Source: a virus (taxonomy: Duplodnaviria; Caudoviricetes). Taken from it: a stretch of DNA of 55,882 nucleotides. The stretch is from IMG/VR virus record IMGVR_UViG_3300007363_000002, positions 1 to 55,882 of that record. One strand, 5' to 3'. Shown here one piece after another: positions 2,112 to 55,302 of the stretch. Every line of letters begins with the position of its first letter. Position 1 is the first letter of the stretch. The notes under the pieces were generated by a model. The model was not told the origin of the DNA and searched no databases. It saw nothing but the letters and a program-made list of their open reading frames with translations. The translations under genes and the position numbers were made by a program.

Positions 2112-2293
2112 TTTAACCTCGTTATGAAAGTGACGCCATTGATCGTGCGGCACTTGAAGACCTTGCCGTGGCGGATGCCGTACTGGCTGACGTTCCGAGA
2201 CGTGCGCTTTATCGAACCCTTCTTGTCGGCTGGCATGCTGGCGACCTCGCCGACCTCCAGCGCTCCCATTGGGTATATCATCGGTCTGGGCAT
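2108..2293 (-). CDS. Small basic hypothetical protein (possibly DNA-binding)
   Basis: YPMGALEVGE...GKVFKCRT...ITRLK resembles a common small phage protein. Confidence 0.65.
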   Translation of the reverse strand: MPRPMIYPMGALEVGEVASMPADKKGSIKRTSRNVSQYGIRHGKVFKCRTINGVTFITRLK

Positions 2294-2472
2294 TAGTTGC
2301 CCCCCGCTTGAAGCATAAGGTCCGCCACCTTGTAGGCTCGCTCGGTAATATCCCTTGGCGTTTGGGTTCGGTAGTATTCGGTGATCAAAGCAGGTAGCGC
2401 TTGCCCAGCAAAGTAGTCGCGCAGGGTCATGCCGCGGTCAAAATAACTGCCGAATGCTTTTAAGTTGCTCAT
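2293..2472 (-). CDS. 59-aa conserved phage protein with a GMTLRDYFA motif (not in ORF track)
   Basis: Manual translation MSNLKAFGSYFDRGMTLRDYFAGQALPAL...AYKVADLMLQAGGN; GGAG SD; TAATG coupling. Confidence 0.8.
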   Translation of the reverse strand: MSNLKAFGSYFDRGMTLRDYFAGQALPALITEYYRTQTPRDITERAYKVADLMLQAGGN

Positions 2473-2491
2473 TGTGTTTCTCCAGTTAAAG

Positions 2492-2755
2492 TTATTCGCC
2501 GCAAGTGTCGCAGCCGTCTGGTGATTTAATCTCGACCGTGAAGCCCGCGTCGCGTAGGACGCCGACGGTCAGGCAGTTGGTCAGGTAGAGGGAACGCTCG
2601 CGCTCCATAACCAAATCTTTCTCCGTCTCCAGCTTGCTGCGGCGCTCGCGCTCCAGCTCGGCGGCGTGCCGCTCGACCTGCTCGATCAGCCGGTCAATCT
2701 TCCACTGAAGCTCGTCTGGGCCGCCTGCGGGTGTGTCTTCGGTGATGGCGGTCAT
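2492..2755 (-). CDS. Coiled-coil hypothetical protein with a C-terminal CxxC
   Basis: GGAG SD; ATGA coupling. Confidence 0.65.
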   Translation of the reverse strand: MTAITEDTPAGGPDELQWKIDRLIEQVERHAAELERERRSKLETEKDLVMERERSLYLTNCLTVGVLRDAGFTVEIKSPDGCDTCGE

Positions 2756-3147
2756 GCTGGGTCTCCAGTTGGGGCGGCGCGTTCATATGCGGCAGCGGCG
2801 GCGACATAAACCGCACGGGCGGCGTCGTAGGCGGTGTAGGCTTCGAGGGCAGCAGCGCGGGCGACGTCGTCGGTTGCTGGGTCGGGTGTCGTGGTCGGCG
2901 GCTCCGTGGCCGTCGCCTCTTCCTCACCGGTCAGAACCGCTCCGAACAACCAATTCTCGCGCACCCTAAACTCAAGGCTTGTGTTAGGCCCAAAAACGCA
3001 CCCGCGAGCAATAAGCTCTTTTCGGACGGCCATTTCGATAAACAAATCCAAGACTGTTATTTCGGTCGTGGTGCGGGTCGTGGTCGTTATTGAGATGTCG
3101 GTCCGGATGTTGTGACCCTCAATTACTTTGTGCTTTTTCTTGCTCAT
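2752..3147 (-). CDS. Hypothetical protein with an Ala-rich C-terminus
   Basis: AGGAG SD; ATGA coupling. Confidence 0.6.
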   Translation of the reverse strand: MSKKKHKVIEGHNIRTDISITTTTRTTTEITVLDLFIEMAVRKELIARGCVFGPNTSLEFRVRENWLFGAVLTGEEEATATEPPTTTPDPATDDVARAAALEAYTAYDAARAVYVAAAAAYERAAPTGDPA

Positions 3148-3404
3148 GCTGCCTTCTCCTGTTGGTGGACGTACAGTGCCTCGTCGAGCAGCTCCTCGCG
3201 CAGCGTGTGCAGCGCAGCCAGTCGGTCAAAGTGGGTGGTGCGGTCGGCGACGCAGGCCAGCGTGTCGTTGGGATAGTCGCGACCGTTTGGCGTGGCACCC
3301 TTGAGGGCGTCGATGACCTCGTCGATCAGGGCCATCGCATTGCGGCGCGGGTTGATGAGGTCAAAGGCGTCTGAGCCGTTGATGTTGAGTGTTGGTCGTA
3401 TCAT
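3144..3404 (-). CDS. Hypothetical early protein
   Basis: AAGGA SD and ACCAACAAC leader motif. Confidence 0.7.
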   Translation of the reverse strand: MIRPTLNINGSDAFDLINPRRNAMALIDEVIDALKGATPNGRDYPNDTLACVADRTTHFDRLAALHTLREELLDEALYVHQQEKAA

Positions 3405-3421
3405 GTTGTTGGTCCTTTCAA

Positions 3422-3604: not shown

Positions 3605-3662
3605 TTCGTAATCCCTTCTGTGTTGGTGAAGCCACCAATAAAGCATTTGAGGGTATATGCAA
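3605..3662 (-). promoter_or_regulatory. Sigma70-like early promoter with conserved leader/RBS
   Basis: TTGCAT-N16-TATTGG, then CACCAACACAGAAGGGATTACGAAATG; near-duplicate of 3971-4029. Confidence 0.6.
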
Positions 3663-3970: not shown

Positions 3971-4029
3971 TTCGTAATCCCTTCTGTGTTGGTGACACCA
4001 TCCTTAGAGGGCATTTGAGGGTATGTAAA
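3971..4029 (-). promoter_or_regulatory. Sigma70-like early promoter with conserved leader/RBS
   Basis: TTTACA-N17-TAAGGA, then CACCAACACAGAAGGGATTACGAAATG. Confidence 0.65.
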
Positions 4030-43870: not shown

Positions 43871-44034
43871 TACCATTTCCTCGGCGTAGGGTTCTTCTCC
43901 CACGAGTGGCGCTCAATCGCACCTAGCTGATCCCACGGCAAGCGTGGAAGCCGAGTTCCATCAACGCGAGGCAAGTAAAATGGCTGACGCAACACATCTT
44001 GTTCGTAGGCAATCTGTCCGGGTGTTTTTGTCAT
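43870..44034 (-). CDS. 54-aa protein (not in ORF track)
   Basis: MTKTPGQIAYEQDVLRQPFY...SWEKNPTPRKW; has its own promoter-leader cassette; TAATG coupling. Confidence 0.7.
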   Translation of the reverse strand: MTKTPGQIAYEQDVLRQPFYLPRVDGTRLPRLPWDQLGAIERHSWEKNPTPRKW

Positions 44035-44093
44035 GGCGGTAGTTCCTTCGTTGTTGGTGAAGCCTTATTGGCACAACAACTAAGTGGTTGCAA
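44035..44093 (-). promoter_or_regulatory. Promoter with conserved leader/RBS
   Basis: TTGCAA -35 overlapping AACCACTTAGTT, then CACCAACAACGAAGGAAC. Confidence 0.55.
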
Positions 44094-44376
44094 CCCCGTT
44101 TCGCACTTTTTCCACAATCTCGTCGATTTCTTCGATTGTACGCGCGATGTACACCGGCACGCCGTGCGCCCGCATGCGTAAAATCTCGCGTTCCTGTATC
44201 GTGCTGACGCGGTCGCCGAAGGCCTTGATCTCGATGAAGGCGACGTGTGGCCAGTCCCACCACACAAAGCAGTCAGGGCAGCCGTTGCGGCCTTCCCAGC
44301 GCACCTTGCGGTATTGCCCCCCGCTCTTCTGCACCTTCTGCTTGAGGTGGTCCTGTAGCTTGCCTGCGGGCGTCAA
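44080..44376 (-). CDS. VRR-NUC domain nuclease
   Basis: GCPD..FIEIK..Q PD-(D/E)xK pattern. Confidence 0.85.
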   Translation of the reverse strand: MTPAGKLQDHLKQKVQKSGGQYRKVRWEGRNGCPDCFVWWDWPHVAFIEIKAFGDRVSTIQEREILRMRAHGVPVYIARTIEEIDEIVEKVRNGVATT

Positions 44377-44651
44377 TCTAATTCACTCGGCTGCAAGTCA
44401 ACGGGCTTGTCGTCAAGCCAACAGTCGATGACGTAGTGTAGGTACGCGCGATCAGCATCGCACTTAGCCTTGGGCTTTCCGTCCTTGACCAGCACAGTCG
44501 CCGTGTCGGCGTTGGCGGCCCCGAAGCACCGCTCTTTGGTCAGGATCAGCTTGCGGGGCATGTCGGCGTTGAAACTGAACGATGCACCACCGTCTGGCTC
44601 CATAAATCCGTACAGAAATGTGATGTTGTAGGGGTTGTATTCGGCTGCCAT
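44373..44651 (-). CDS. Hypothetical protein
   Basis: ATG 44651 after AAGGA; fills the gap between pol and VRR-NUC. Confidence 0.55.
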   Translation of the reverse strand: MAAEYNPYNITFLYGFMEPDGGASFSFNADMPRKLILTKERCFGAANADTATVLVKDGKPKAKCDADRAYLHYVIDCWLDDKPVDLQPSELD

Positions 44652-44655
44652 AATC

Positions 44656-46623
44656 TCAATCCTTCTTGTAGCGGTGGGTCTCGAACCCAGCCGCAGCCAG
44701 CGGCAGGCCGACGGCCCACGACGGGTTGGTGGCCATGATCGACGCAAGCTGCGCCACACTGTATTCGGGCGTGTCCGGCGTCTCGGTAATCAGCTCGTCA
44801 TGCACGCGGATGCAGACTTCGTAGCCGTGCTCCTCCGCGCCGACCATGCCGGTCATGAAGACGTCGCGGGCGACGGCCTGAACGATGTTCTCCACCAGCT
44901 TGCCGCCGTACGTCTCGATGCGCTCCCACTTCTTAGTGTACTGGTTCACGCCCTCAAACGTGACGCGCGCGTCCTCGATCTTGGCGTTGCGGTAGGACAG
45001 GTAGCGCCCGCTGGGCAGCTTGATGCGCAGCCATCCGTCCTTCATGTCGAAGTGGAGCAGGCCGCGCACGTCGAAGCTCTCGCCCTTGCCGCGCACTGCC
45101 GCGCGCGCCGCGCCCTCGACGTCGTACCAGAGGCTCTTTGTCGCAGAGTGCGCCGTGCGCCACGCGGTCACCAGCGGCTTGATCTCGTCGTCCGTCATGG
45201 CCGCGACCGCAGGGCCGCCCATCGTGCGGAAGGCTCCGACGCCGCCCTGATAGCCGCACGCCAGCTCCATCGTCTTGCCGTACTGGCGCATGGACCCGTC
45301 GCCGTTCTTCTTGTTATCGACCACCACTTCGGGGTCGACGTTGAAGCCCTTGGCGTAGGCGACCACGTACAGGTCGTGCCCGATGCCACGGTCGAAGTCG
45401 TAGAAGGCCTTAATCTTCCAGTCCTCACCGGCCAGCCACGCAAGCACGCGGCCCTCGATGTTGGACAAGTCGGCGATGACCAGCTTGCGGCCCGCAGGGG
45501 CCACCAGACAGCCGCGCACGGCGGACGAACACAGGTCGGTCACGTTGTCGAACAGCAGATCTTCACAGTCCAGCTTCATGGCGGAGATGCCGGTCTCGAT
45601 CTCGTCGGCGTCCATCACGGGGCGCGGCAGGTTCTGCGGCTGGAATATCCGCCCCGCGTCGCGGCCTGTGCGCGATGCGCCGCAGAACTGGAGCGTGCCG
45701 CGCAGGCGACCGTCGGACGACGTGGCGTCGAGCAGCACCTTATATTTTGCCGGTGAGGTGGCCGCCGCCTGCTGCCGGATCTCCAACAGCTCACGCACGA
45801 AGGGCGTCAGGCTGCTGCTGCGGAGCAGTTCGGCGACGGTGGACTTAGTCAGGTTCTCCGGCGTGAAATTGTGGTAGTCCCGCAGGTACTGTAGGAAGCG
45901 CGCGCCCTGCGTCAGCTTCGTTACGTGGCCGCCTGTTAGATCGGCTGCACGAGCGGCCAGAGTTCCTGAAGTTCTTCGAAAAGCTCGAAGGGCTGCGTGG
46001 GCGAGTTCAAGGTCGATGGCGATGCCACGGTCATTAACTCTTTGGTCAATTCGCCAAAGGTTCCGCTCACTCCGACTATTGTTCCAATTCGGCAGGCGTC
46101 CATATACGTCTCGCATCGCGTCCACATCGAGGCGGGCGTATTCGATGAACTCGTTCCATTCGGTGGGGTGACTGACACTGTCCGCTCTCCTCAACTTCAT
46201 ATTCTTCGGCCGTGGCTTCGTGAATAAGTGTATCAGCTTTTTGCCTGCCTTGTCTTTAGCTTTGTCGGTAGGCACACCCAATACGTCGCACAGCGTGCCC
46301 AGCGAACCGGGAAGGCTGTGGGCGAGCGCCTGCACCATCGTGTCGCGGATCTTCTCGACGGGTATGTTTACGCCGCAGTGGCGCAGCACGGTGCGGTCGA
46401 AGTGACTGTTGTGGATAACAACGGTGTCGGCATGATCAACAGCCCACTGCAACGTGCCCATCCATTTGTCCCACCCCTCGGTGGCGCAGTCTAAGACGGT
46501 CACCGGCTCGTCGTCCCAAGCGAAGGCAACCAGCAGCACTTCCGCCTCTTCGGCGTAGCGATGCGTCCCGTGCGTGATCGGCACTTCGCTGTAGGTCTCA
46601 ATATCCAAAAAGAGTACGGTCAT
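44656..46623 (-). CDS. polA: Family A DNA polymerase with a 3'-5' exonuclease domain
   Basis: DIET and HNSHFD exonuclease motifs; ADLSNIEGR (A), RQYGKTMEL (B), VHDE (C). Confidence 0.92.
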   Translation of the reverse strand: MTVLFLDIETYSEVPITHGTHRYAEEAEVLLVAFAWDDEPVTVLDCATEGWDKWMGTLQWAVDHADTVVIHNSHFDRTVLRHCGVNIPVEKIRDTMVQALAHSLPGSLGTLCDVLGVPTDKAKDKAGKKLIHLFTKPRPKNMKLRRADSVSHPTEWNEFIEYARLDVDAMRDVYGRLPNWNNSRSERNLWRIDQRVNDRGIAIDLELAHAALRAFRRTSGTLAARAADLTGGHVTKLTQGARFLQYLRDYHNFTPENLTKSTVAELLRSSSLTPFVRELLEIRQQAAATSPAKYKVLLDATSSDGRLRGTLQFCGASRTGRDAGRIFQPQNLPRPVMDADEIETGISAMKLDCEDLLFDNVTDLCSSAVRGCLVAPAGRKLVIADLSNIEGRVLAWLAGEDWKIKAFYDFDRGIGHDLYVVAYAKGFNVDPEVVVDNKKNGDGSMRQYGKTMELACGYQGGVGAFRTMGGPAVAAMTDDEIKPLVTAWRTAHSATKSLWYDVEGAARAAVRGKGESFDVRGLLHFDMKDGWLRIKLPSGRYLSYRNAKIEDARVTFEGVNQYTKKWERIETYGGKLVENIVQAVARDVFMTGMVGAEEHGYEVCIRVHDELITETPDTPEYSVAQLASIMATNPSWAVGLPLAAAGFETHRYKKD

Positions 46624-47033
46624 TTCCAGCGCGCCCCAATCAACCAATGTGGGTAAGGCCTATTGCCAGCAGCGTAATCCATGCGCATATTTTCGCTGCG
46701 AGTGCCGTATTTTAAATTAGACGCGCAGTTGTCAGCAGGGTCGTGGTTCAAATGCAAAACTTCACACCCAGCAGGGCACCGCCCAACAAAGGCTTCCATC
46801 ACTAGTTGATGCACAAGGCGGCTATTACCTTTGCCTATCGCTACGGATAGGTGTCCGCTACGTGTCCGCCCCGGACGCAACAAGCGCGAAGGAACCCGCC
46901 TAGTCGTTTCACCAGCTTGTTTCGTCACTAGACGTACGCGGCGCTCTAACGAACGGACGCGACCTTGATCGCTAACTTCGTACGCACTTTCAGCACCCAC
47001 AACGGGTTTCCAAGTTTCTAAGATGGTCATCAA
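46620..47033 (-). CDS. NUMOD4-HNH free-standing homing endonuclease
   Basis: ETWKPVVG..YEVSDQGRVRS (NUMOD4); VHQLVMEAF..VLHLNHDPADN..SNLKYGTRSEN. Confidence 0.88.
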   Translation of the reverse strand: MMTILETWKPVVGAESAYEVSDQGRVRSLERRVRLVTKQAGETTRRVPSRLLRPGRTRSGHLSVAIGKGNSRLVHQLVMEAFVGRCPAGCEVLHLNHDPADNCASNLKYGTRSENMRMDYAAGNRPYPHWLIGARWK

Positions 47034-47326
47034 CGCTTCCCGTGCAAGATCTCGCTGACGCGGCCCGGATTGATGTTATGCGCTTCGGCAATCTCTTGAT
47101 GCGACGCGTCGGGGTTGGCTGCCGCCATGGCGCGGACAGACGCGCGCACGTCAGCCGTGATGCGCCTGTTCTTCACGGGCGTGCGCGTGTAGCTGCGGCG
47201 GTACGTCTCCTGCATCAACGCGTTGATGCGCAAGTTTATCGCGTACTGACGACGGGCTAACTTTGTGCCTTCATCAGTCAGCTCGGCGATTAAGTCGCGG
47301 ATCTGGGGTATGGTAAGTTTGGTCAT
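47030..47326 (-). CDS. HTH DNA-binding protein
   Basis: C-terminal SHQEIAEAHNINPGRVSEIL. Confidence 0.7.
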   Translation of the reverse strand: MTKLTIPQIRDLIAELTDEGTKLARRQYAINLRINALMQETYRRSYTRTPVKNRRITADVRASVRAMAAANPDASHQEIAEAHNINPGRVSEILHGKR

Positions 47327-47341
47327 GATATTCTCCCTCAA

Positions 47342-47470
47342 TTCTGGTGGACCGCGCCACGCTAGTTACCAACAACGGGAGAGGGATCACCCGGTGCGTG
47401 GCGCGGTCCGCCAGAAAAGAGGGCGCGACGGTTGCTTCCAACTGATGCCGGAGCACCCAACCGTCGCGCC
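47342..47470 (-). ncRNA. Putative structured RNA (two long hairpins), candidate antisense regulator
   Basis: Stem 47342-47362/47396-47416 (20/21) and perfect 13-bp stem 47422-47434/47458-47470; loop 1 is antisense to the early-gene leaders; strand inferred from operon context. Confidence 0.55.
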
Positions 47471-47482
47471 GTCCCTATAGCG

Positions 47483-47740
47483 CTAAATTAGATCAAGTCC
47501 AATAGCTGACGCATATGCGTCGACAAGATAGCGTTCTTCCTGCCGCTTGTCGGGGTCTAACGCCCGCAGGCGCAGGACTTGCCGCATAATCTTGACGTCG
47601 TAGCCGCGAGACTTGCCCTCGGCGAACACGTCCTTGATGTCCTCGGCGATTTCCTTCTTCTGCTCTTCCATCTTTTCGATGCGTTCGAAGAGCAAGTTCA
47701 GTTCGTCACCGGCGACGAGGTTGTGCCCAATGTCCGACAT
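47483..47740 (-). CDS. gapR: GapR-like (DUF2312) nucleoid-associated protein
   Basis: ERIEKMEEQKKEIAEDIKDVFAEGKSRGYDVKIMRQVLRLR. Confidence 0.85.
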   Translation of the reverse strand: MSDIGHNLVAGDELNLLFERIEKMEEQKKEIAEDIKDVFAEGKSRGYDVKIMRQVLRLRALDPDKRQEERYLVDAYASAIGLDLI

Positions 47741-48306
47741 CAGAGCAGGTCTTCCGCGTCGACAGCGAAGTCAGCAAACTCGCTGGCCGATGCCGGTGCG
47801 CTGCCGCCGAAGTTCTCGCCGTCCTTGGCGAACATGACGCCACGCAAGGTGCAGTTAATGCGCTGACCCCACTTGTTGTCCTGAGGCCAAATGTCGACCG
47901 ACGCGTGGACGTAGCAGCCCGAATAAATCAGACGCTCAATTTCTGCGGTGCTTTTGACTTCGTTGCCGAGGCGGTCAACGACCGTAGGCTGTGTGCCTGC
48001 GTTGCGTGCGGACAGATAGAACTTGTCCTCAAAGCCCGCGTACGGCTGGCGTGTCTTCTTGTTGCGGTACTCGGCCTCGACGAAGCAGATCTTCTTGTCG
48101 TCGGTCAGGGCGTCGATTACGTCCTGCGCCTCGTCCTTCCACTTGTCCTTGGCTGCCTCCAAGATGGCGTCCTTAATCTGCTTCACGTGCTCACCCTTCG
48201 GGTCGACGATCAGCTTTGCTCCGTAGGCTGGCTCGCCCTCGCCGAAGGATTGCGGCGAACCCAGAGCTGGGAAGGCGATACGGATATTTTTAAGCATTAC
48301 TTGCAT
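47740..48306 (-). CDS. Single-stranded DNA-binding protein (DUF2815-like)
   Basis: RIAFP..YSGCYV..NKWGQRINCTLRGVMFAKDGENFGG; acidic tail. Confidence 0.85.
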   Translation of the reverse strand: MQVMLKNIRIAFPALGSPQSFGEGEPAYGAKLIVDPKGEHVKQIKDAILEAAKDKWKDEAQDVIDALTDDKKICFVEAEYRNKKTRQPYAGFEDKFYLSARNAGTQPTVVDRLGNEVKSTAEIERLIYSGCYVHASVDIWPQDNKWGQRINCTLRGVMFAKDGENFGGSAPASASEFADFAVDAEDLL

Positions 48307-48317
48307 TTTTCATTTCC

Positions 48318-49559
48318 TCAGTTTGCAGTTAAGTCACGGAAATCATCCATGACGGGTTTTACGACCATCTCTGGTCGCTTATCGGTGGCGGGTGCCACTG
48401 ATGGCTTGCCGTCGCTCCGAACGATCTGCTCTTGCAGGTTCGCCCAGCGCTTGGGGTTTTCTTTGAACACCTTCTCGGCCTTTGTGGGGCTGATTAGCTT
48501 GAAGTCATAGACCTGATCGTCGCGCATGCGGAAGGTCTTCTTCATCGTCTCCTCAACGGCCTTCGGGTCTTTCCAGTCGCGGTTGCCAGCGCGGCCTTGA
48601 ACCAGTTTGTAGCCGGTTACGGGCTGCCCCGCAAGCAGTCGGCGCTCCGTTTCCGCACGGACAGCCTTGCACCACTGCTCGACCATTTCAACCTTGGACA
48701 TGGCCACAGGCAGGTAGTTGTCGCTGGTCTCGGACGTAATCTCCTGCGGCACCAGATCGGCAAAGTCGCTTAGGTCTGCCGAACCGCCGACCACTTCGGC
48801 CATCTCGGCGCGCAGGGCTGGGCAGGTTGCCTTGGCCTTACAGAACTTGCACTGCTTCTCGCCGGGGTTAAACCACTCGCTGTAGTCAAGTGGAGGTCCG
48901 CCCGTATTTTTGTGGGCCATAGAACCAAAGGACGGCACACTGGCGATGCGCTTGGCTACGGTCCGCACCTCCTCTGCAAAGGCGAGTATTTCACTTACCG
49001 GAATGCTGTACTCGCTGACGTGGTTCAGGCGCGGCTGGTGGATGACCATCGTGACCGTGTCGAAGTCGCCGACAAGTTCGTACTCGTTCAGCGCGCCCAG
49101 CGCATATATCATGAGCTGCGGATTGGCGTTCGCATCGACACGCACGCCCATGCCGTACTTTAGGTCAATGATGATGATCTCACTGCCCTTGATGATGATT
49201 ACGTCGGACGTTCCGCCCGCGCCGTCCTCGCCGGTCAAGTGGCCTATGCCGACGCGCTGCTCAACCATAAGTTCACCACCCTCGGCGTACTCACGGACGA
49301 GCTTCATGTAGTCCTTGACGTGGTCGACCATGGTCTGGTCGATGGTGAAGTCGAAGCCGTCGACGGACGCTGGCTTGCCGATCAACAGCGCGGGATCTGC
49401 GCCGCTGATTAGGCATTCTGACGCAAGCTCGTGCGCCACTGTCCCCTCGGCAGCAAATTCGCTGCTGCTGTCGGGGTACTCGGCCTCAAGCTGGACGCTG
49501 GCGAGGCAGGCCATCCAGCGGTGCGCGCCGGACGGACTTAGTTTGGCGTGGGCGCTCAC
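48318..49559 (-). CDS. DUF2800 PD-(D/E)xK (Cas4-like) exonuclease
   Basis: HAKLSPSGAHRWMAC, GTSD, IDLKYG, QLMIYALG, CKFCKAKATCP. Confidence 0.88.
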   Translation of the reverse strand: MSAHAKLSPSGAHRWMACLASVQLEAEYPDSSSEFAAEGTVAHELASECLISGADPALLIGKPASVDGFDFTIDQTMVDHVKDYMKLVREYAEGGELMVEQRVGIGHLTGEDGAGGTSDVIIIKGSEIIIIDLKYGMGVRVDANANPQLMIYALGALNEYELVGDFDTVTMVIHQPRLNHVSEYSIPVSEILAFAEEVRTVAKRIASVPSFGSMAHKNTGGPPLDYSEWFNPGEKQCKFCKAKATCPALRAEMAEVVGGSADLSDFADLVPQEITSETSDNYLPVAMSKVEMVEQWCKAVRAETERRLLAGQPVTGYKLVQGRAGNRDWKDPKAVEETMKKTFRMRDDQVYDFKLISPTKAEKVFKENPKRWANLQEQIVRSDGKPSVAPATDKRPEMVVKPVMDDFRDLTAN

Positions 49560-50050
49560 TTGCCCAGCGCCTCATTGCACAGGCCAACCAGTTCGGGCAG
49601 CAGGGCTGGCTCAATCATGGACGCCTTGGCCACACCGAAGCGGGACAGAAGCTCTTCCATAACTGGCTTGCCGCGCGCCGTAACGACCTTGAGGATCAGC
49701 GGCCGCACAACGGTTTCGAAGTCCAGCGTGTCGATAGGCAGGTCAACGACCTCCAGCTCTTCGTCTTCAGAGGCCGATGCCGCAGGTGCAGGGGTAGTAG
49801 ATGGTTCCTTCGTCGTTGGCTGGCTGGAGAGACCATCCACAGTGGTAGCACCAATGATGGAAGGGGAAGTAGGGTTTGCGGGTGCGGCTTCGGCGACCTC
49901 CGTCTTGGCGGCGTTACGTTTGGCTTGCGCTGCCTCCCGCGCCGCGTCATCCGCAGCGTTGATGGCCGCGCTGCGCAAGCTCGCGCCGATGGCCAACAGC
50001 TTGTCGGCCACTTCGGGGATGCTGTTTCCTGTTACTTCGATCTTAATCAT
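49556..50050 (-). CDS. Conserved replication-module protein
   Basis: Low-complexity linker plus a C-terminal ELLSRFGVAKAS helical domain; typical upstream of DUF2800. Confidence 0.7.
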   Translation of the reverse strand: MIKIEVTGNSIPEVADKLLAIGASLRSAAINAADDAAREAAQAKRNAAKTEVAEAAPANPTSPSIIGATTVDGLSSQPTTKEPSTTPAPAASASEDEELEVVDLPIDTLDFETVVRPLILKVVTARGKPVMEELLSRFGVAKASMIEPALLPELVGLCNEALGK

Positions 50051-50053
50051 CTG

Positions 50054-50272
50054 TCAGTTTCCTTTTTTCATTTCGTTAATAGCTTTCTTGGCCTCATGGA
50101 TCGCGTTCAGCAACGGAATGTGGCATTCAACGCATACATCCTGCCAGCCCGTCATACCCATAGGACCACGGCCAATTTGCTGCATCGCAGTGCCGGAGAC
50201 TACGATCTGTGTCAGGCTGTTCATCTGCTTGCCGCAAATGTCGCAGGTGAGGGTCTGCTCAACCTTTAGCAC
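50054..50272 (-). CDS. Small Zn-finger protein
   Basis: CDIC...CVEC. Confidence 0.6.
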   Translation of the reverse strand: MLKVEQTLTCDICGKQMNSLTQIVVSGTAMQQIGRGPMGMTGWQDVCVECHIPLLNAIHEAKKAINEMKKGN

Positions 50273-50286
50273 GCTGCCACCACTGG

Positions 50287-50583
50287 TTAACCTTCATTAT
50301 TCTGCTCTTTCAGTCGTTCGATAGTTTCGTCGCGCGTGGTAAGCATAAGTTCGAGCACGTCGATTTTATGTTGCAGCTCGCAGATCTCGTCGTCGAGCTT
50401 GTTCGCGTCGCGTTCAAAGTCGGCGGCGCGGTCTTTTAGGGCTTCAGTTTCCGCCTCGTACTCAACCCATACGGCCTCCAGACGCTCGCCCAGCACGATG
50501 GCCAGCTCTGCGTTGGGGTTGTAGCGGGCTTCCTCGAGAAGTTTGCTGTCCTCGCACATTCGGTATGTATTACGGTCTGTCAT
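50287..50583 (-). CDS. Coiled-coil hypothetical protein
   Basis: Start reassigned to ATG 50583 (MTDRNTYR). Confidence 0.6.
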   Translation of the reverse strand: MTDRNTYRMCEDSKLLEEARYNPNAELAIVLGERLEAVWVEYEAETEALKDRAADFERDANKLDDEICELQHKIDVLELMLTTRDETIERLKEQNNEG

Positions 50584-50584
50584 A

Positions 50585-50755
50585 TCAAAAGTTCCATTCT
50601 TTAGCGCCGCGCTCGGCGGCAATGCGGCGGGCGTCGCGTTTGTCCGCGACGACGATTGTCTCAACCTTAAAGGGCCGCCCGTCATCCCCGATGTGTTGGA
50701 TGTCCAGTTCCTTGCGGCCCTTGACGACATAGTAGCTGGCGCGAAGTTCGGACAT
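50585..50755 (-). CDS. 56-aa protein (not in ORF track)
   Basis: MSELRASYYVVKGRKELDI...RRIAAERGAKEWNF fills the gap exactly. Confidence 0.65.
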   Translation of the reverse strand: MSELRASYYVVKGRKELDIQHIGDDGRPFKVETIVVADKRDARRIAAERGAKEWNF

Positions 50756-50757
50756 GA

Positions 50758-51072
50758 TTATGCCTTTCTCGCCACGACCTTAACGGTCGTGTAGCCCTTG
50801 GCTACTTTCTGGTTCTTGCTGAACCACCGACCGTCGACGCCCAGCTCGCGGAGCTTGGCTTCGGCTGCCTTGGCGTCGAGCGACGAACGCTCGGCGACAA
50901 TGGAGACGGTGGCGCGGAAGGCGCGGCCGTCAATCGCGTCGGCACCGGCGTCGGTGATACGCGCAATCAGATCGGCCTCAACCTTCTTGAGGTCGGCGAT
51001 CTGGGCCTTGATGTCGCCCAGACGGTCGACGATGGCGGAGCTGAAGTCGATAGTATTAAAGGCGGTAGCCAT
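50758..51072 (-). CDS. Conserved phage protein
   Basis: VDRLGDIKAQIADLKKVEADL..IDGRAFRATVS; has its own promoter cassette. Confidence 0.7.
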   Translation of the reverse strand: MATAFNTIDFSSAIVDRLGDIKAQIADLKKVEADLIARITDAGADAIDGRAFRATVSIVAERSSLDAKAAEAKLRELGVDGRWFSKNQKVAKGYTTVKVVARKA

Positions 51073-51134
51073 TTTGTAATCCCTTTCGTGTTGTTGGTGA
51101 CACGGTCTCTAAACTGCTTGGTTGCAGGGGTCAA
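51073..51134 (-). promoter_or_regulatory. Sigma70-like promoter with conserved leader/RBS
   Basis: TTGACC-N17-TAGAGA, then CACCAACAACACGAAAGGGATTACAAAATG. Confidence 0.65.
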
Positions 51135-51137
51135 GCA

Positions 51138-53198
51138 CTAAATGCAAAAAATTACATGTCCGTTCTTTATTTCGATCAGCGGGTCTTTGCGCTTGGCCAG
51201 CGACTGGATCGCACGGTCCAGATCGCGGCGGCGCAGGTCGCGCTTCGGTGCCTCTGGCTTGGTCATGGCGGCCAGACACTTGTCGAACAGCTCGCTCAGA
51301 GGTGCGCGCTCAACACCCTCGTACTCGCTCTCAATGATCTCAAGCACGTGACGCTCCTTCGGACCAAAGCGCTGGGCCTTGGTGCCGACTTCGACAAGTA
51401 CCGGCGACGGCACGTCAGCCTCAACGGCAACGCAGCTCGTGATGGGGTCGCCGTCAAGATCCGCGCCGACGACAATGGTCTCCAGACGGAAGCCCCACTT
51501 CAGCCCGTCGTCGCCGTCCTTCATCTTCGTGATGCGCAGCTCGCGGGTGCCGTTCTCGTACTTCAAAACTTCAAGCTCGGCGTCGGCCGCCGCGCGCTTG
51601 CCCGACCAGCCGCGCACGCCCTTCGACGCGTCCTTGCCGCTGTGGTCGACCATGATGATCGTTGCGCCCGTGGCTGTCTCCAGCGCACGCGCGTTGGCCA
51701 GCGCCAGACCGACGTCCTCGGAGCTGTTCTCGTTCGCCCCCGGCGTGACCTGCGCCATCGTGTCGACGATGATGACGTCAGCGCCGCCGGACGCGGCGAC
51801 GGCCGCAGCCAGTTCGGTCACGTCCTCGGACAGCAGGAAGTTCGGCGGCACGGTCAGCAGGCCGATGTCCGCGTCGTTCGGGTCGATCTTGTGATGCTTC
51901 AGGTACGCCTTCAGGCGCTTGCTCATGCCCTTGCCGCCCTCGGCGGCGATGATCAGCACGCGGCCCTTCTTTACGCGGTTGCCGCGCCACTGGACGCCCA
52001 TCGCGATGGCGTAGGCTAAGTCGATGGCCACGAAGGTCTTGCCGGAGCCTGACGCGCCGAAGAGCACGATCAGCCCAGCGTCGGGCAGCACGTTCTTGAT
52101 CAGCCAGCCGCCCGGTTCCAGCATGATACTAACCGACAGTGACGTGATTGGGAAGCGGCCGTTGTAATCTTCGGGCGTGAACATACCCAATGCAGGCGTG
52201 GCGGCAACCGCGCTCATTGCTGTGCGCAAGTCGTCAACAGTTGCCGCCAAGGTGGGGCGCGGGGTGGGCGCGCCTGCCTCCTTTGCCATCTTGAGAACGG
52301 ACGCCATGGTCACCTGACGGTGGCCCGAACCCTTGCGGCGTTCGAAGCTGTCCCACTGTGTCCGTAAACCTTCTTCGCTCGGATACTTCGATCCGTTCTC
52401 CGACCAGTCGTTCCAGATCTCGAAGCCTGTGTCGTCGCCGTCGCACTCGTGGTGCAGGGCCATGCCGACCCTGATCCAGTCCTCACGCGACATGTCCGCG
52501 TCGAGCACGGACAGCAGCTCCTCCATCTGGGAGACGGTCAGGCCAATCTTCGGCTCGCGGCCGACCATGAAGTCGTCGGGGTCAGCCTCGCGCTGTTGCG
52601 TCGGGGAAAAGCGCGCCGCGCAGAGCGGGGCGACCAGCGTGTCCAGATTGGCCACGGTGTCCTCAAGGCCGAGCAGGTCGGTGTAGGGCATGGCGTTGCC
52701 GGTGAAGGTCACGAAGCCGGAGCTGGTGAACGTCTCGAAGCCGTAGTCGTTGCCCTCGGTCGGCGACTTGCGATTGCCGTAAGAGCCACGCACGAAGGCA
52801 CGGATGCCCTTACCGCTGGGTGAGTACTCGGCGTAGGTCTGGCTGGCGATCTGCTCGATCTCTGGCGGCAGCTTGCCCTGCGCGTCGACGCAGTTGTCGA
52901 AGTCGAGGGCCGTGATGCCGAACTCGGGCATGAGCGCCAGACCGACGCCGGTGAAGCCACGCCGAGCGGCCGCGTCACGCGCAGCGGCGAAGGTGGTCAT
53001 GCGCCCACGGTCGTCAATGCCGCCCTGCTTGCCGTGGCGCTTACCGCCGTCGGCATAGTAGGGCACCTTCAGCGGCTTGCCGTTGGGGTTTTCGGCGTCT
53101 GGTTCGAACCGCCAAATCAGCCAGCCCTGTAGCTCCCGCAGCTCGGCGGGTGCCAACACGGACGCGTTGTGCGGTGTAATCGGCTGTACGTTGCCCAT
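51138..53198 (-). CDS. Primase-helicase (prim-pol + PriCT-2 + AAA_25/RepA-like)
   Basis: LDFD, EYSPSGKGIR, WIRVGMALH..WNDWS..KY..W.SF, GASGSGKT, IIVDT, DHSGK..RGWS. Confidence 0.88.
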   Translation of the reverse strand: MGNVQPITPHNASVLAPAELRELQGWLIWRFEPDAENPNGKPLKVPYYADGGKRHGKQGGIDDRGRMTTFAAARDAAARRGFTGVGLALMPEFGITALDFDNCVDAQGKLPPEIEQIASQTYAEYSPSGKGIRAFVRGSYGNRKSPTEGNDYGFETFTSSGFVTFTGNAMPYTDLLGLEDTVANLDTLVAPLCAARFSPTQQREADPDDFMVGREPKIGLTVSQMEELLSVLDADMSREDWIRVGMALHHECDGDDTGFEIWNDWSENGSKYPSEEGLRTQWDSFERRKGSGHRQVTMASVLKMAKEAGAPTPRPTLAATVDDLRTAMSAVAATPALGMFTPEDYNGRFPITSLSVSIMLEPGGWLIKNVLPDAGLIVLFGASGSGKTFVAIDLAYAIAMGVQWRGNRVKKGRVLIIAAEGGKGMSKRLKAYLKHHKIDPNDADIGLLTVPPNFLLSEDVTELAAAVAASGGADVIIVDTMAQVTPGANENSSEDVGLALANARALETATGATIIMVDHSGKDASKGVRGWSGKRAAADAELEVLKYENGTRELRITKMKDGDDGLKWGFRLETIVVGADLDGDPITSCVAVEADVPSPVLVEVGTKAQRFGPKERHVLEIIESEYEGVERAPLSELFDKCLAAMTKPEAPKRDLRRRDLDRAIQSLAKRKDPLIEIKNGHVIFCI

Positions 53199-54093: not shown

Positions 54094-54150
54094 GTGTGTA
54101 TCCCTTCGTTGTTGGTCCGTCTGCAATACACAAGTTGATTGCGGATACAA
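54094..54150 (-). promoter_or_regulatory. Promoter with conserved leader/RBS
   Basis: TTGTAT-N16-TATTGC, then GGACCAACAACGAAGGGATACACACATG. Confidence 0.6.
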
Positions 54151-54382: not shown

Positions 54383-54684
54383 TTCGATAGGTTCCAATCT
54401 GATAAGCGCAGCCTGCGCGGTGGTTCGTTGCGGACGCGCTGCGCGGTGATGCCCACGAACTTGACGCTGTGGGCGTACTCAATGGCGGCCGTCTGCTGCT
54501 CCTGCGTCATGGGGCCGTGCGTCTTGCCGGTGGCCAAGATCGCGGCGCACAGGTTCTTCGACCCGAAGAAGGCGTCGTCGATGATGTGGCGGGTCTTGGG
54601 GTCGATGCCAATCGGCGACGTGTCAACGTTGCTGGACGGCGTCTTGTCTTTCCTTTCGGCGGGTGAGATCTGGCGCTTACGCAT
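54379..54684 (-). CDS. Hypothetical protein
   Basis: Operon packing; GAGG SD. Confidence 0.55.
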   Translation of the reverse strand: MRKRQISPAERKDKTPSSNVDTSPIGIDPKTRHIIDDAFFGSKNLCAAILATGKTHGPMTQEQQTAAIEYAHSVKFVGITAQRVRNEPPRRLRLSDWNLSK

Positions 54685-55189
54685 CGAGGTGCGCCTCGAT
54701 GAACTCTTCGACCGTGGGCTGGTTGTGCCACTCTTCGAAGTCGTCGCAGTCCTCGCTGCGGTAATCGTTCCAGCGGTCGGCGAGATACTCGTCGCGGATC
54801 AGCTCCAGCTTGGCTTCGTGCTCAAGCGAGAACTCGTCTTCCGTGCGGAAGTGCGCAAGGATCTGCGGAAGCAGTGCCGTTACGCGTTCGTCTTTGGTCC
54901 AGTTAATCATTTTGTCATCCTTTTCTTGTTGGTCCAGTGGCCTTACAAGCAGTTGGTTGCACGTGTCAACAGGTTTATTTAACGCGTGGACGATTGTGCT
55001 GTGATCGCGGTCCATCACCCGGCCGATCTCGGTGGTTGAGTAGCCCTTCTCCCGGAGCATCAGGACGCACAGGCGGCGCACAGCCACCACGCGCTTGAGC
55101 CGCGACTTGCCGAGCATGTCGGCGGCCGTGTAGCCGTACTGCTTCGCGATGGCGTCGACGGCCTCTAGGTTCTTTTCCCGTGGTGTCAT
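54677..55189 (-). CDS. DnaA C-terminal-like HTH protein, in frame with a downstream acidic domain (internal start at 54910)
   Basis: MLGKSR..VVAVRR..YSTTEIGRVMDRDHSTIVHA matches the DnaA domain IV pattern. Confidence 0.7.
   Translation of the reverse strand: MTPREKNLEAVDAIAKQYGYTAADMLGKSRLKRVVAVRRLCVLMLREKGYSTTEIGRVMDRDHSTIVHALNKPVDTCNQLLVRPLDQQEKDDKMINWTKDERVTALLPQILAHFRTEDEFSLEHEAKLELIRDEYLADRWNDYRSEDCDDFEEWHNQPTVEEFIEAHLDA
54911..54969 (-). promoter_or_regulatory. Promoter with conserved leader/RBS, embedded in a coding frame
   Basis: TTGACA-N18-TAAGGC, then GGACCAACAAGAAAAGGATGACAAAATG. Confidence 0.6.
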
Positions 55190-55302
55190 GTCAGTCTTTC
55201 CTGTACTTTTCCGCACTTCGTGCATCTGCGCCTATGGTACGGAACCCAGCCCAACAGATATGGCGGCGTCCATTTCGACCATTTGTGGAACCAACAGGTC
55301 AT
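55186..55302 (-). CDS. 38-aa Cys/His Zn-binding peptide (not in ORF track)
   Basis: MTCWFHKWSKW...RCTKCGKVQERLT; ATGA overlaps on both sides. Confidence 0.6.
   Translation of the reverse strand: MTCWFHKWSKWTPPYLLGWVPYHRRRCTKCGKVQERLT

Follow-up and report, generated by a model that had tools for sequence, protein, structure and literature searches.

A long hairpin with a loop complementary to early-gene leaders in the replication operon of uncultured freshwater phages

Genomic context of the hairpin

The stretch of DNA analysed here (the window, 55,882 nt in full) is a complete viral record of 55.9 kb with direct terminal repeats and a G+C content of 59%. A long hairpin sits in a 141-nt gap of the replication operon, which is encoded on the - strand (Table 1). 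The operon genes upstream of it encode a primase-helicase, a DUF2800 exonuclease, an Enc34-type single-strand-binding protein and a GapR-like protein; those downstream comprise a small helix-turn-helix-like gene, an HNH endonuclease, a family A DNA polymerase and a SNF2 helicase. The start of the operon, at the leader preceding the ATG at 51072 (leaders are named hereafter by the start codon that they precede), lies 3.6 kb from the hairpin.

The interval from the hairpin to the polymerase gene (46599-47334) is variable: it holds the helix-turn-helix-like gene and the HNH endonuclease in the window, while in close relatives the hairpin is followed directly by the polymerase, by an HNH-like gene (MIKAIETRY..) or by other genes, and contigs of two sequencing runs, X21 and X9, join 46599 to 47334. 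Words sampled from 44000-52000 are found at shares of 0.33 to 1.0 in 20 of the 24 runs listed, under the labels freshwater, drinking water, estuary, riverine, aquaculture and viral metagenomes, with smaller shares in four more RNA-library runs. Among the assembled contigs aligned from four runs, one from an RNA library covers 47334-48140 and may derive from DNA; such contigs reveal neither ends nor strand and so speak neither for nor against an RNA.

Table 1. Features of the window bearing on the hairpin and on the early leaders.
Feature	Position	Strand	Remark
Partial leader ACCAACAAC	3405..3413	-	Directly before ATG 3404
Early leader ACCAACAC..AGGGAU	3605..3627	-	Before 60-aa gene
Early leader ACCAACAC..AGGGAU	3971..3993	-	Before 84-aa gene
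Partial leader ACCAACAACGAAGGAAC	44035..44058	-	Before 54-aa gene downstream of the polymerase
Small gene with helix-turn-helix-like end	47030..47329 (ATG 47329)	-	First gene after the hairpin; replaced by other genes in relatives
GAGGG, Shine-Dalgarno of the next gene (ATG 47329)	47335..47339	-	Minimum-free-energy fold
Long hairpin, core	47342..47416	-	21-bp stem with one mismatch; 33-nt loop at 47363-47395
Loop segment GUUGUUGGU	47368..47376	-	Complementary to ACCAACAAC, the 5' part of early leaders
Loop segment GUGAUCCCUC, anti-Shine-Dalgarno stretch	47381..47390	-	Complement of AGGGAU(U)AC in the leaders
Upstream hairpin I2	47419..47473	-	Directly after the GapR-like gene; terminator-like, poor U tract
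GapR-like DNA-binding protein gene	47483..47740	-	Pfam PF10073, E 6.6e-27; last gene before the hairpin
Replication-operon leader (operon carrying the hairpin)	51073..51098	-	Best predicted loop partner, 9 + 9 bp, -21.6 kcal/mol
Putative promoter TTGACC-17 nt-TAGAGA	51106..51134	-	Ends 7 nt before the 51072 leader
Early leader before 54-aa gene	54094..54116	-	Second-best predicted loop partner, -19.6 kcal/mol
Partial leader ACCAACAAG..AAGGAU	54911..54933	-	Before ATG 54910

Structure of the hairpin

A preliminary description of this DNA reported, at 47342-47416, an inverted repeat around a leader-complementary segment, and the sequence reads as described there; the arms of the repeat reach 47335-47362 and 47396-47423, that is, 28 nt with 89% complementarity. 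The single mismatch of the stem, T47348/G47410 on the + strand, is a C.A opposition (C47410/A47348) in an RNA of the - strand. The 171-nt intergenic stretch folds at -88.1 kcal/mol (z -5.99) when read from the - strand and at -86.0 kcal/mol (z -6.69) from the + strand, and in either orientation none of 200 shuffled sequences folds as well.

Two segments of the loop match the two halves of the early leaders. The segment GUUGUUGGU is invariant within the window's clade, and its place is taken elsewhere by the complement of that clade's own leader; the anti-Shine-Dalgarno stretch GUGAUCCCUC is enclosed by a weak 4-bp inner stem (CGGG/CCCG). At the foot of the long hairpin, the minimum-free-energy fold pairs the Shine-Dalgarno GAGGG of the next gene with CCCUC at 47419-47423, and this base helix is kept in the window's clade.

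The CCCUC arm lies where the long hairpin meets I2, whose pyrimidine tail CCCUCUUUUCUGG is also the 5' base of the long hairpin. I2 is swapped for other hairpins at the same place in some relatives, its tail is a mixture of C and U, and a simple terminator scan does not call it; transcription may nevertheless end at I2, before the long hairpin. The long hairpin itself is not an intrinsic terminator, having no U run and being followed by AGAAUUGAGGG. Its architecture resembles that of phage early-mRNA RNase III sites, which have about two turns of duplex RNA and an internal loop, in that its double-stranded stem spans 21-27 bp and contains an invariant 1x1 mismatch; a long stem with an obligatory mismatch is plausible as a candidate feature for recognition by RNase III or by a protein.

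Early leaders and promoter-like sequences

The bipartite motif CCAACA-N0-15-AGGGAT has five matches in the window where 0.08 are expected, a number reached in none of 100 shuffles. Four of them are the exact leader copies already proposed in the preliminary description, each on the - strand and separated by 6 nt from its ATG (3604, 3970, 51072 or 54093); the partial copies that it listed before 3404, 44034 and 54910 are present as well. The fifth match is on the + strand within the hairpin loop, in the orientation opposite to the leaders. ACCAACA alone occurs 22 times against 5.9 expected, including the sites before 3404, 44034 and 54910, and the spacing between the two leader half-motifs ranges from 2 to 5 nt. 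The leader-bearing genes encode small proteins without known families.

Sequences of the form TTGNNN-about 17 nt-TANNNN, ending ~7 nt before the ACC of the leader, are found upstream of 3604, 3970, 44034, 51072, 54093 and 54910 and are conserved in relatives, although a scan for E. coli-type consensus promoters calls none of them. This spacing and conservation lead us to infer that the leader motif represents the 5' end of early transcripts. In the case of 54910, the promoter-like site and the leader lie within one unbroken frame of 182 codons (54677-55225), the first part of which is DnaA-like; since a stop codon splits this frame in one relative (L023), 54677-55225 probably corresponds to two genes sharing one reading frame. 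Many promoter-like regions of early genes in the family also carry a near-palindrome, TTGCAA-N5-7-TTGCA(T), around the -35 position, often preceded by GGGG (for example L085, 3233-3272, and L109, 3190-3229), which may be the site of a regulator.

Predicted pairing between loop and leaders

When the loop, treated as a free strand, is paired with the 31-nt windows preceding all 732 operon-strand ATGs, the leaders of 51072 and 54093 are its two best partners (energies in Table 1), and those of 3970, 3604 and 44034 rank 6th, 9th and 11th. Fifteen other early start regions reach -0.6 to -9.6 kcal/mol. The duplex claimed for the 51072 leader, 9 + 9 bp with one G-U, is recovered by co-folding leader and loop, and in close relatives the 44034 leader matches the loop over 12-13 nt. 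A phage's own leaders likewise rank first for the loops of two relatives, L061 (top 3) and L027 (top 4); for the loop of another set of relatives (group 2), runs of G are the best-energy partners, and the polymerase start region comes only third.

Other measures are less discriminating. A matrix of pairing energies across clades does not separate own from foreign genomes; exact 9-mers of the loop moderately favour own genomes (5, 6, 5 and 2 against 0-4 in cross comparisons), and counts of 7-mers and 8-mers are too noisy. An unrestricted duplex scan of both genomes is uninformative, being dominated by stronger G/C-rich duplexes elsewhere, and local alignment of the loop copy to the genome does not outscore the best of its shuffled versions (mean 23, maximum 28), so that only the position of its top matches, at start codons, is informative. 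Co-folding of the whole hairpin with the leaders gave a ddG of 0 throughout and was discarded, as the program cannot pair from inside a closed loop.

The complementarity of the loop begins exactly at the ACC, ~7 nt past the promoter-like -10 hexamer. This sharp start, together with the variable spacing of the half-motifs, fits pairing between RNAs better than a DNA operator.

Conservation of the hairpin in relatives

Neither megablast nor blastn of the region, or of the hairpin of one relative, matched any deposited phage, and no cultured phage carrying the hairpin was found. The closest cultured phages are those of the Caulobacter phage RW group, with polymerases 63% identical to that of the window; at the position of the hairpin they are without the long mismatch-bearing stem and without a matching loop. 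RW itself (L026, 7905-8000) has a terminator-like hairpin followed by a short one, the stem of which (CUCCG/CGGAG) lies over the Shine-Dalgarno of the polymerase. This short hairpin may be a simpler ancestral state.

Uncultured relatives were gathered by protein-guided scans of IMG/VR. With a generic hairpin finder, 117 of the 129 locus records gave a candidate, often because a contig had been retrieved twice; these reduce to 52 unique hairpins and, after two false detections (L128 and L112) had been dropped, to 50 variants. The hairpin is thus known from at least 50 sequence variants in many freshwater metagenomes. In the window's clade, it is present in all 20 loci that reach its position, is better conserved than I2 and keeps its place though at least three different genes come next. 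Conservation of the loop exceeds that of its flanks, and all 13 variants of this clade share GUUGUUGGUAAC unchanged, though the loop has no good cis partner there. The L064 record, too short to show the leaders, is a mosaic over 2142-3200, with a single-strand-binding protein 89% identical to that of the L061 clade and a hairpin identical to a variant of the window's clade, which suggests recombination near the hairpin.

The stem varies by compensation. RNAalifold predicts 17 pairs from 49 variants, 14 of which show changes on both sides; 95.9% of the stem cells in these variants are paired, against 38-51% in slid controls, and none of 500 shuffles reaches any of these measures. At one position the pattern is the reverse: the mismatch site, flanked by GG_G / C_CC, is never Watson-Crick in any of the 50 variants, being C.A in 44 and U.U in six. 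The preliminary description had looked to this mismatch for the strand of the RNA; as a conserved 1x1 internal loop (C.A or U.U), it does not mark the strand. The remaining wobble cells do carry such information, with 37 G-U against nine A.C when read on the operon strand, and 20 G-U against none in group 2 alone.

Joint variation of loop and leaders

Co-variation of loop and leaders in relatives, which the preliminary description had named as a test, is clearly positive. Early leaders differ among the relatives (AUCAGCAACG, AUCAACAACG, GUCAGCAACU, UAUCAAGCAAC, GGGACAACC and AGGAGUACCA), and every time the matching complement is found in the loop (Table 2); loop and leaders change jointly in at least eight variant types. 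In the 624 kb that the 50 variants represent, the loop has 88 exact complements of at least 10 nt on the operon strand and 18 on the other strand, of which 78 and 10, respectively, lie within 30 nt before an ATG or GTG. At least one such site is present on the operon strand in 36 of the 39 loci of at least 9 kb, and on the other strand in eight of them. As the 50 variants are mutually related, site counts overstate the number of independent events, and it is the variant types with their own loop/leader pair that constitute the real evidence.

Table 2. Loop segments of relatives with the leaders or start regions that they match.
Variant	Partner	Partner sequence	Loop sequence	Copies or length
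L022/L027	Leader	UCAGCAACA..AGGGAC		9-mer: 3 on operon strand + 1 on other strand (loop); control 0/0
Group 2	Start-site motif	GGGACAACC		6 + 1; control 1/0
L061	Leader	CAGCAACA..AGGAGUACCA		4 + 1 per half; control 0/0
Majority type	Leader	(U)AUCAGCAACG..GGAG	CGUUGCUGAUA	
L138	Leader	AUCAACAACG	GUUGUUGAU	Three leaders, up to 16 nt
L123	Leader	GUCAGCAACU	AGUUGCUGAC	
L132 type	Leader	UAUCAAGCAAC	UUGCUUGAUA	
L137	Leader	CUCAGCAAC	GUUGCUGAG	
L118	Leader	AUCAGCAACAC	GUGUUGCUGAU	
L083	Start region in cis	GGUUAUCAGC	GCUGAUAACC	10 nt
L092	Start region in cis	UGUAUCAGC	GCUGAUACA	9 nt
L125	Start region in cis	GUUAUCAGC	GCUGAUAAC	9 nt
L061	Start region in cis	GAAGGAUCAGC	GCUGAUCCUUC	11 nt
L123	Start region in cis	UGUCAGCAAC	GUUGCUGACA	10 nt
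Group 2	Start region in cis	UGGGACAACC	GGUUGUCCCA	10 nt

The comparative evidence for pairing between loop and leaders is strong; it supports the antisense relation put forward in the preliminary description and leads to the conclusion that this pairing is under selection. What the sequences show directly is the structure, the co-variation within the stem and between loop and leaders, and the strand preference; a stable or excised RNA (RNase III being the candidate enzyme), its pairing in the cell, repression as the sign of its effect, and action in trans as opposed to within one long transcript are inferences.

A second partner in cis

In many clades, the gene after the hairpin begins with GGAGG-(G)(U)UAUCAGC-AUG, whether it encodes the polymerase, the helix-turn-helix protein or the HNH-like protein, and changes in this start region are matched by changes in the 3' flank of the loop. 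The match in cis is at least 8 nt long (8-11) in 27 of the 50 variants, 6-7 nt in 13 and at most 5 nt in 10, and it includes flanking changes specific to the cis partner: AUAACC/GGUUAU in L083, AUAC/GUAU in L085, AUCCUUC/GAAGGAU in L061 and ACA/UGU in L123. Since the cis and trans sites overlap in GCUGAU, the two pairings would be mutually exclusive, and the existence of a second partner in relatives makes a two-way switch plausible. The window's clade has a cis match of 5-7 nt only; its start region, GGGAGAAUAUCAUG, may be read as the family start region minus two bases, and in its predicted fold the Shine-Dalgarno is held in the stem base in place of the cis match.

Proposed mechanism and alternative explanations

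In the proposed mechanism, the replication-operon transcript would include a structured RNA of the operon (-) strand. Its long hairpin of ~21-27 bp, with the obligatory 1x1 internal loop, would display in a large loop the complement of the phage's own early leader, covering both the 5' part of the transcript and the Shine-Dalgarno region of the shared leader. The loop would pair with the 5' leaders of promoter-proximal early genes, most strongly in the window with those of 51072 and 54093 and more weakly with those of 3604, 3970, 44034, 54910 and 3404. Because such pairing covers the ribosome-binding site, translation of the early genes would be turned down after transcription of the replication operon, with a delay set by the position of the hairpin, 3.6 kb into an operon that starts at the 51072 leader itself. 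In most relatives, the start region of the post-hairpin gene could offer the same loop an alternative partner in cis, and that gene would be released at the same moment as an early leader bound the loop; in the window's clade, the stem base that sequesters the Shine-Dalgarno would stand in for this cis lock. That an operon-embedded anti-leader RNA hairpin controls early-gene translation is given a probability of about 0.5.

A broader version of the proposal is more tentative, the odds lying somewhat against it: a single RNA hub may time the switch from early to replication functions in the whole family of uncultured freshwater phages related to the Caulobacter phages. The loop would have two alternative partners, the start of the replication module in cis and all early leaders in trans, each pairing event silencing one early message and releasing one replication message. 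This would amount to an all-RNA, stoichiometric analogue of T4 RegA/RegB, in which loop, leaders and cis site evolve in coordination.

With a cis partner in more than half of the variants, the main role of the hairpin could be local control of the next gene. The hairpin would then be mainly a cis translational operator of the gene behind it (the polymerase module) in a reversed or two-way switch, the abundant early leaders being trans RNAs that open or close the post-hairpin gene by occupying the loop, and repression of early genes being a side effect. The long cis matches, found whatever gene follows, their co-varying flanks and the mutual exclusion of the two pairings through GCUGAU all fit such an operator, and IncI1/IncB repZ uses competition of this kind, as outlined in PMC8053102. 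It is nonetheless rather unlikely as the primary function: the loop of the window's clade follows the leaders even with a short cis match, and pairing of the loop cannot open a 21-bp stem whose base holds the Shine-Dalgarno in the window. Dispensing with trans function altogether, the hairpin might be a purely local RNA between gene blocks that serves RNase III processing, stability or sequestration of the Shine-Dalgarno, any likeness between loop and leaders being inherited or incidental. The resemblance of the stem and its conserved internal loop to phage RNase III sites, the CCCUC/GAGGG helix hiding the Shine-Dalgarno, and the presence in cultured RW of just a short Shine-Dalgarno-sequestering hairpin at this place agree with this explanation, which is improbable because it accounts neither for the conservation of the loop above its flanks nor for the joint changes of loop and leaders.

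A further possibility is that a protein, such as a repressor or activator of translation, Hfq or S1, recognises the leader motif; RNAs bearing the motif would then simply be masked or competed for by the loop. The leaders are A/C-rich with AAC repeats, and shared extended start regions are typical of regulons of T4 RegA/RegB-like proteins, as summarised in PMC3014915; a protein site, however, needs no perfectly co-varying complement in a hairpin loop, the genes bearing the motif offer no candidate among their small products, and this explanation is accordingly quite improbable. Hardly probable at all, and the weakest of the rivals, is an active product on the + strand (a decoy RNA mimicking the leader, as the preliminary description had considered, or a 28-aa ORF) or a DNA element such as a replication origin, cruciform or operator. 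Such readings can draw on the location of the hairpin within the replication module and, in the window's clade, on a GTG or ATG that follows the + strand loop copy at the leader-like spacing of 6 nt in every relative listed and on a + strand that often folds 3-8 kcal/mol better, the latter being contrary evidence to the operon-strand assignment. They fail for the family at large, since the + strand copy is followed by no start codon in group 2, L061 or L065 and no promoter-like site lies upstream of it. Moreover, the 37 G-U cells of the - strand are mismatches on the + strand or in DNA, the U.U variants turn into A.A on the + strand, the group 2 motif is tied to start codons and not to promoters, and the half-motif spacing is variable. 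The strand left undecided in the preliminary description is thus resolved towards the operon (-) strand, by the G-U excess and by the fact that, beyond the window's clade, the + copy is followed by no start codon. In the window, a 28-codon + strand frame (47394-47480) starts at a GTG 6 nt past the leader copy; a small + strand protein gene was considered here and rejected for the family, its start codon and open frame being kept only in the window's clade.

The anti-leader hairpin is directly open to experiment, as the eight or more natural variant types of loop and leader amount to ready-made compensatory changes. If confirmed, it would represent a new class of phage riboregulator, provide orthogonal loop/leader pairs that synthetic biology might exploit and serve as a marker for annotating the early transcription units of uncultured phages.

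Comparison with known systems

Rfam gives no match for the whole window at the gathering threshold, the P1/P7 c4 family included, and for 47250-47560 at E values up to 10 only two plant and animal microRNA-precursor models appear, far below their cut-offs. The analogy with the P1 C4 and P4 CI RNAs drawn in the preliminary description thus holds for the logic and not for family membership. Among the titles and abstracts listed by literature searches aimed at such an element, none describes it.

The c4 RNA is processed by RNase P. As outlined in PMC12197685, c4 of P1/P7 is a structured RNA located inside the operon that it controls, with loops complementary to a ribosome-binding region, and blocks translation. 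The present hairpin is likewise embedded in an operon and its loop is complementary to the ribosome-binding regions of its putative targets; it differs from c4 in that six or more leaders, located at the 5' ends of transcripts, would be its targets, where c4 has the single ant/icd target, and in being a single long stem with an obligatory mismatch and without a known link to immunity or lysogeny. The CI RNA of P4 and the CA RNA of N15 are cut from an operon leader and pair with repeated complements in their own or other phage transcripts. Those RNAs terminate transcription in temperate elements, whereas the predicted targets of the hairpin are ribosome-binding sites.

The closest parallel to the dual pairing is found in the IncI1 (ColIb-P9) and IncB plasmids, where, according to the account in PMC8053102, a hairpin loop in the repZ system can pair with a downstream sequence beside the start site of the following gene or, in competition with this, with a trans RNA of the same sequence. 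The relatives of the window show exactly this cis/trans geometry of the loop, and, just as an IncI1-type trans RNA shares the sequence of the cis arm, the early leaders carry the motif, with its overlap GCUGAU. In IncI1/IncB, however, translation is switched on by the pseudoknot, and a dedicated antisense RNA serves as the trans partner, a part that mRNA leaders would play here; the cis arm covers the start codon in the relatives, which suggests repression, unlike IncI1/IncB, and the window's own clade is without a cis arm.

With respect to the set of targets, the proposal recalls T4, where RegB and RegA act at the early-to-middle transition on many early messages through a shared feature of their start regions and RegB also favours polymerase synthesis, as summarised in PMC3014915. 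RegB and RegA are proteins, a nuclease and a repressor, whereas the specificity element here would be RNA. In lytic phages, the timing of gene expression is for the most part attributed to proteins, such as sigma and anti-sigma factors, nucleases and repressors; the hairpin would be an RNA reading an address common to all early messages. Early mRNA of T7 carries RNase III sites, which the long stem with its internal loop, lying between early gene blocks, resembles in its predicted structure, and the position of the hairpin immediately before the DNA polymerase gene, seen in many relatives, recalls the translational operator of T4/RB69 gp43; neither the gp43 operator nor the T7 sites have a loop that co-varies with the leaders of other genes. 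The hairpin belongs to no known family by its lack of an Rfam match, and its logic resembles both that of c4 and the competition seen in IncI1.
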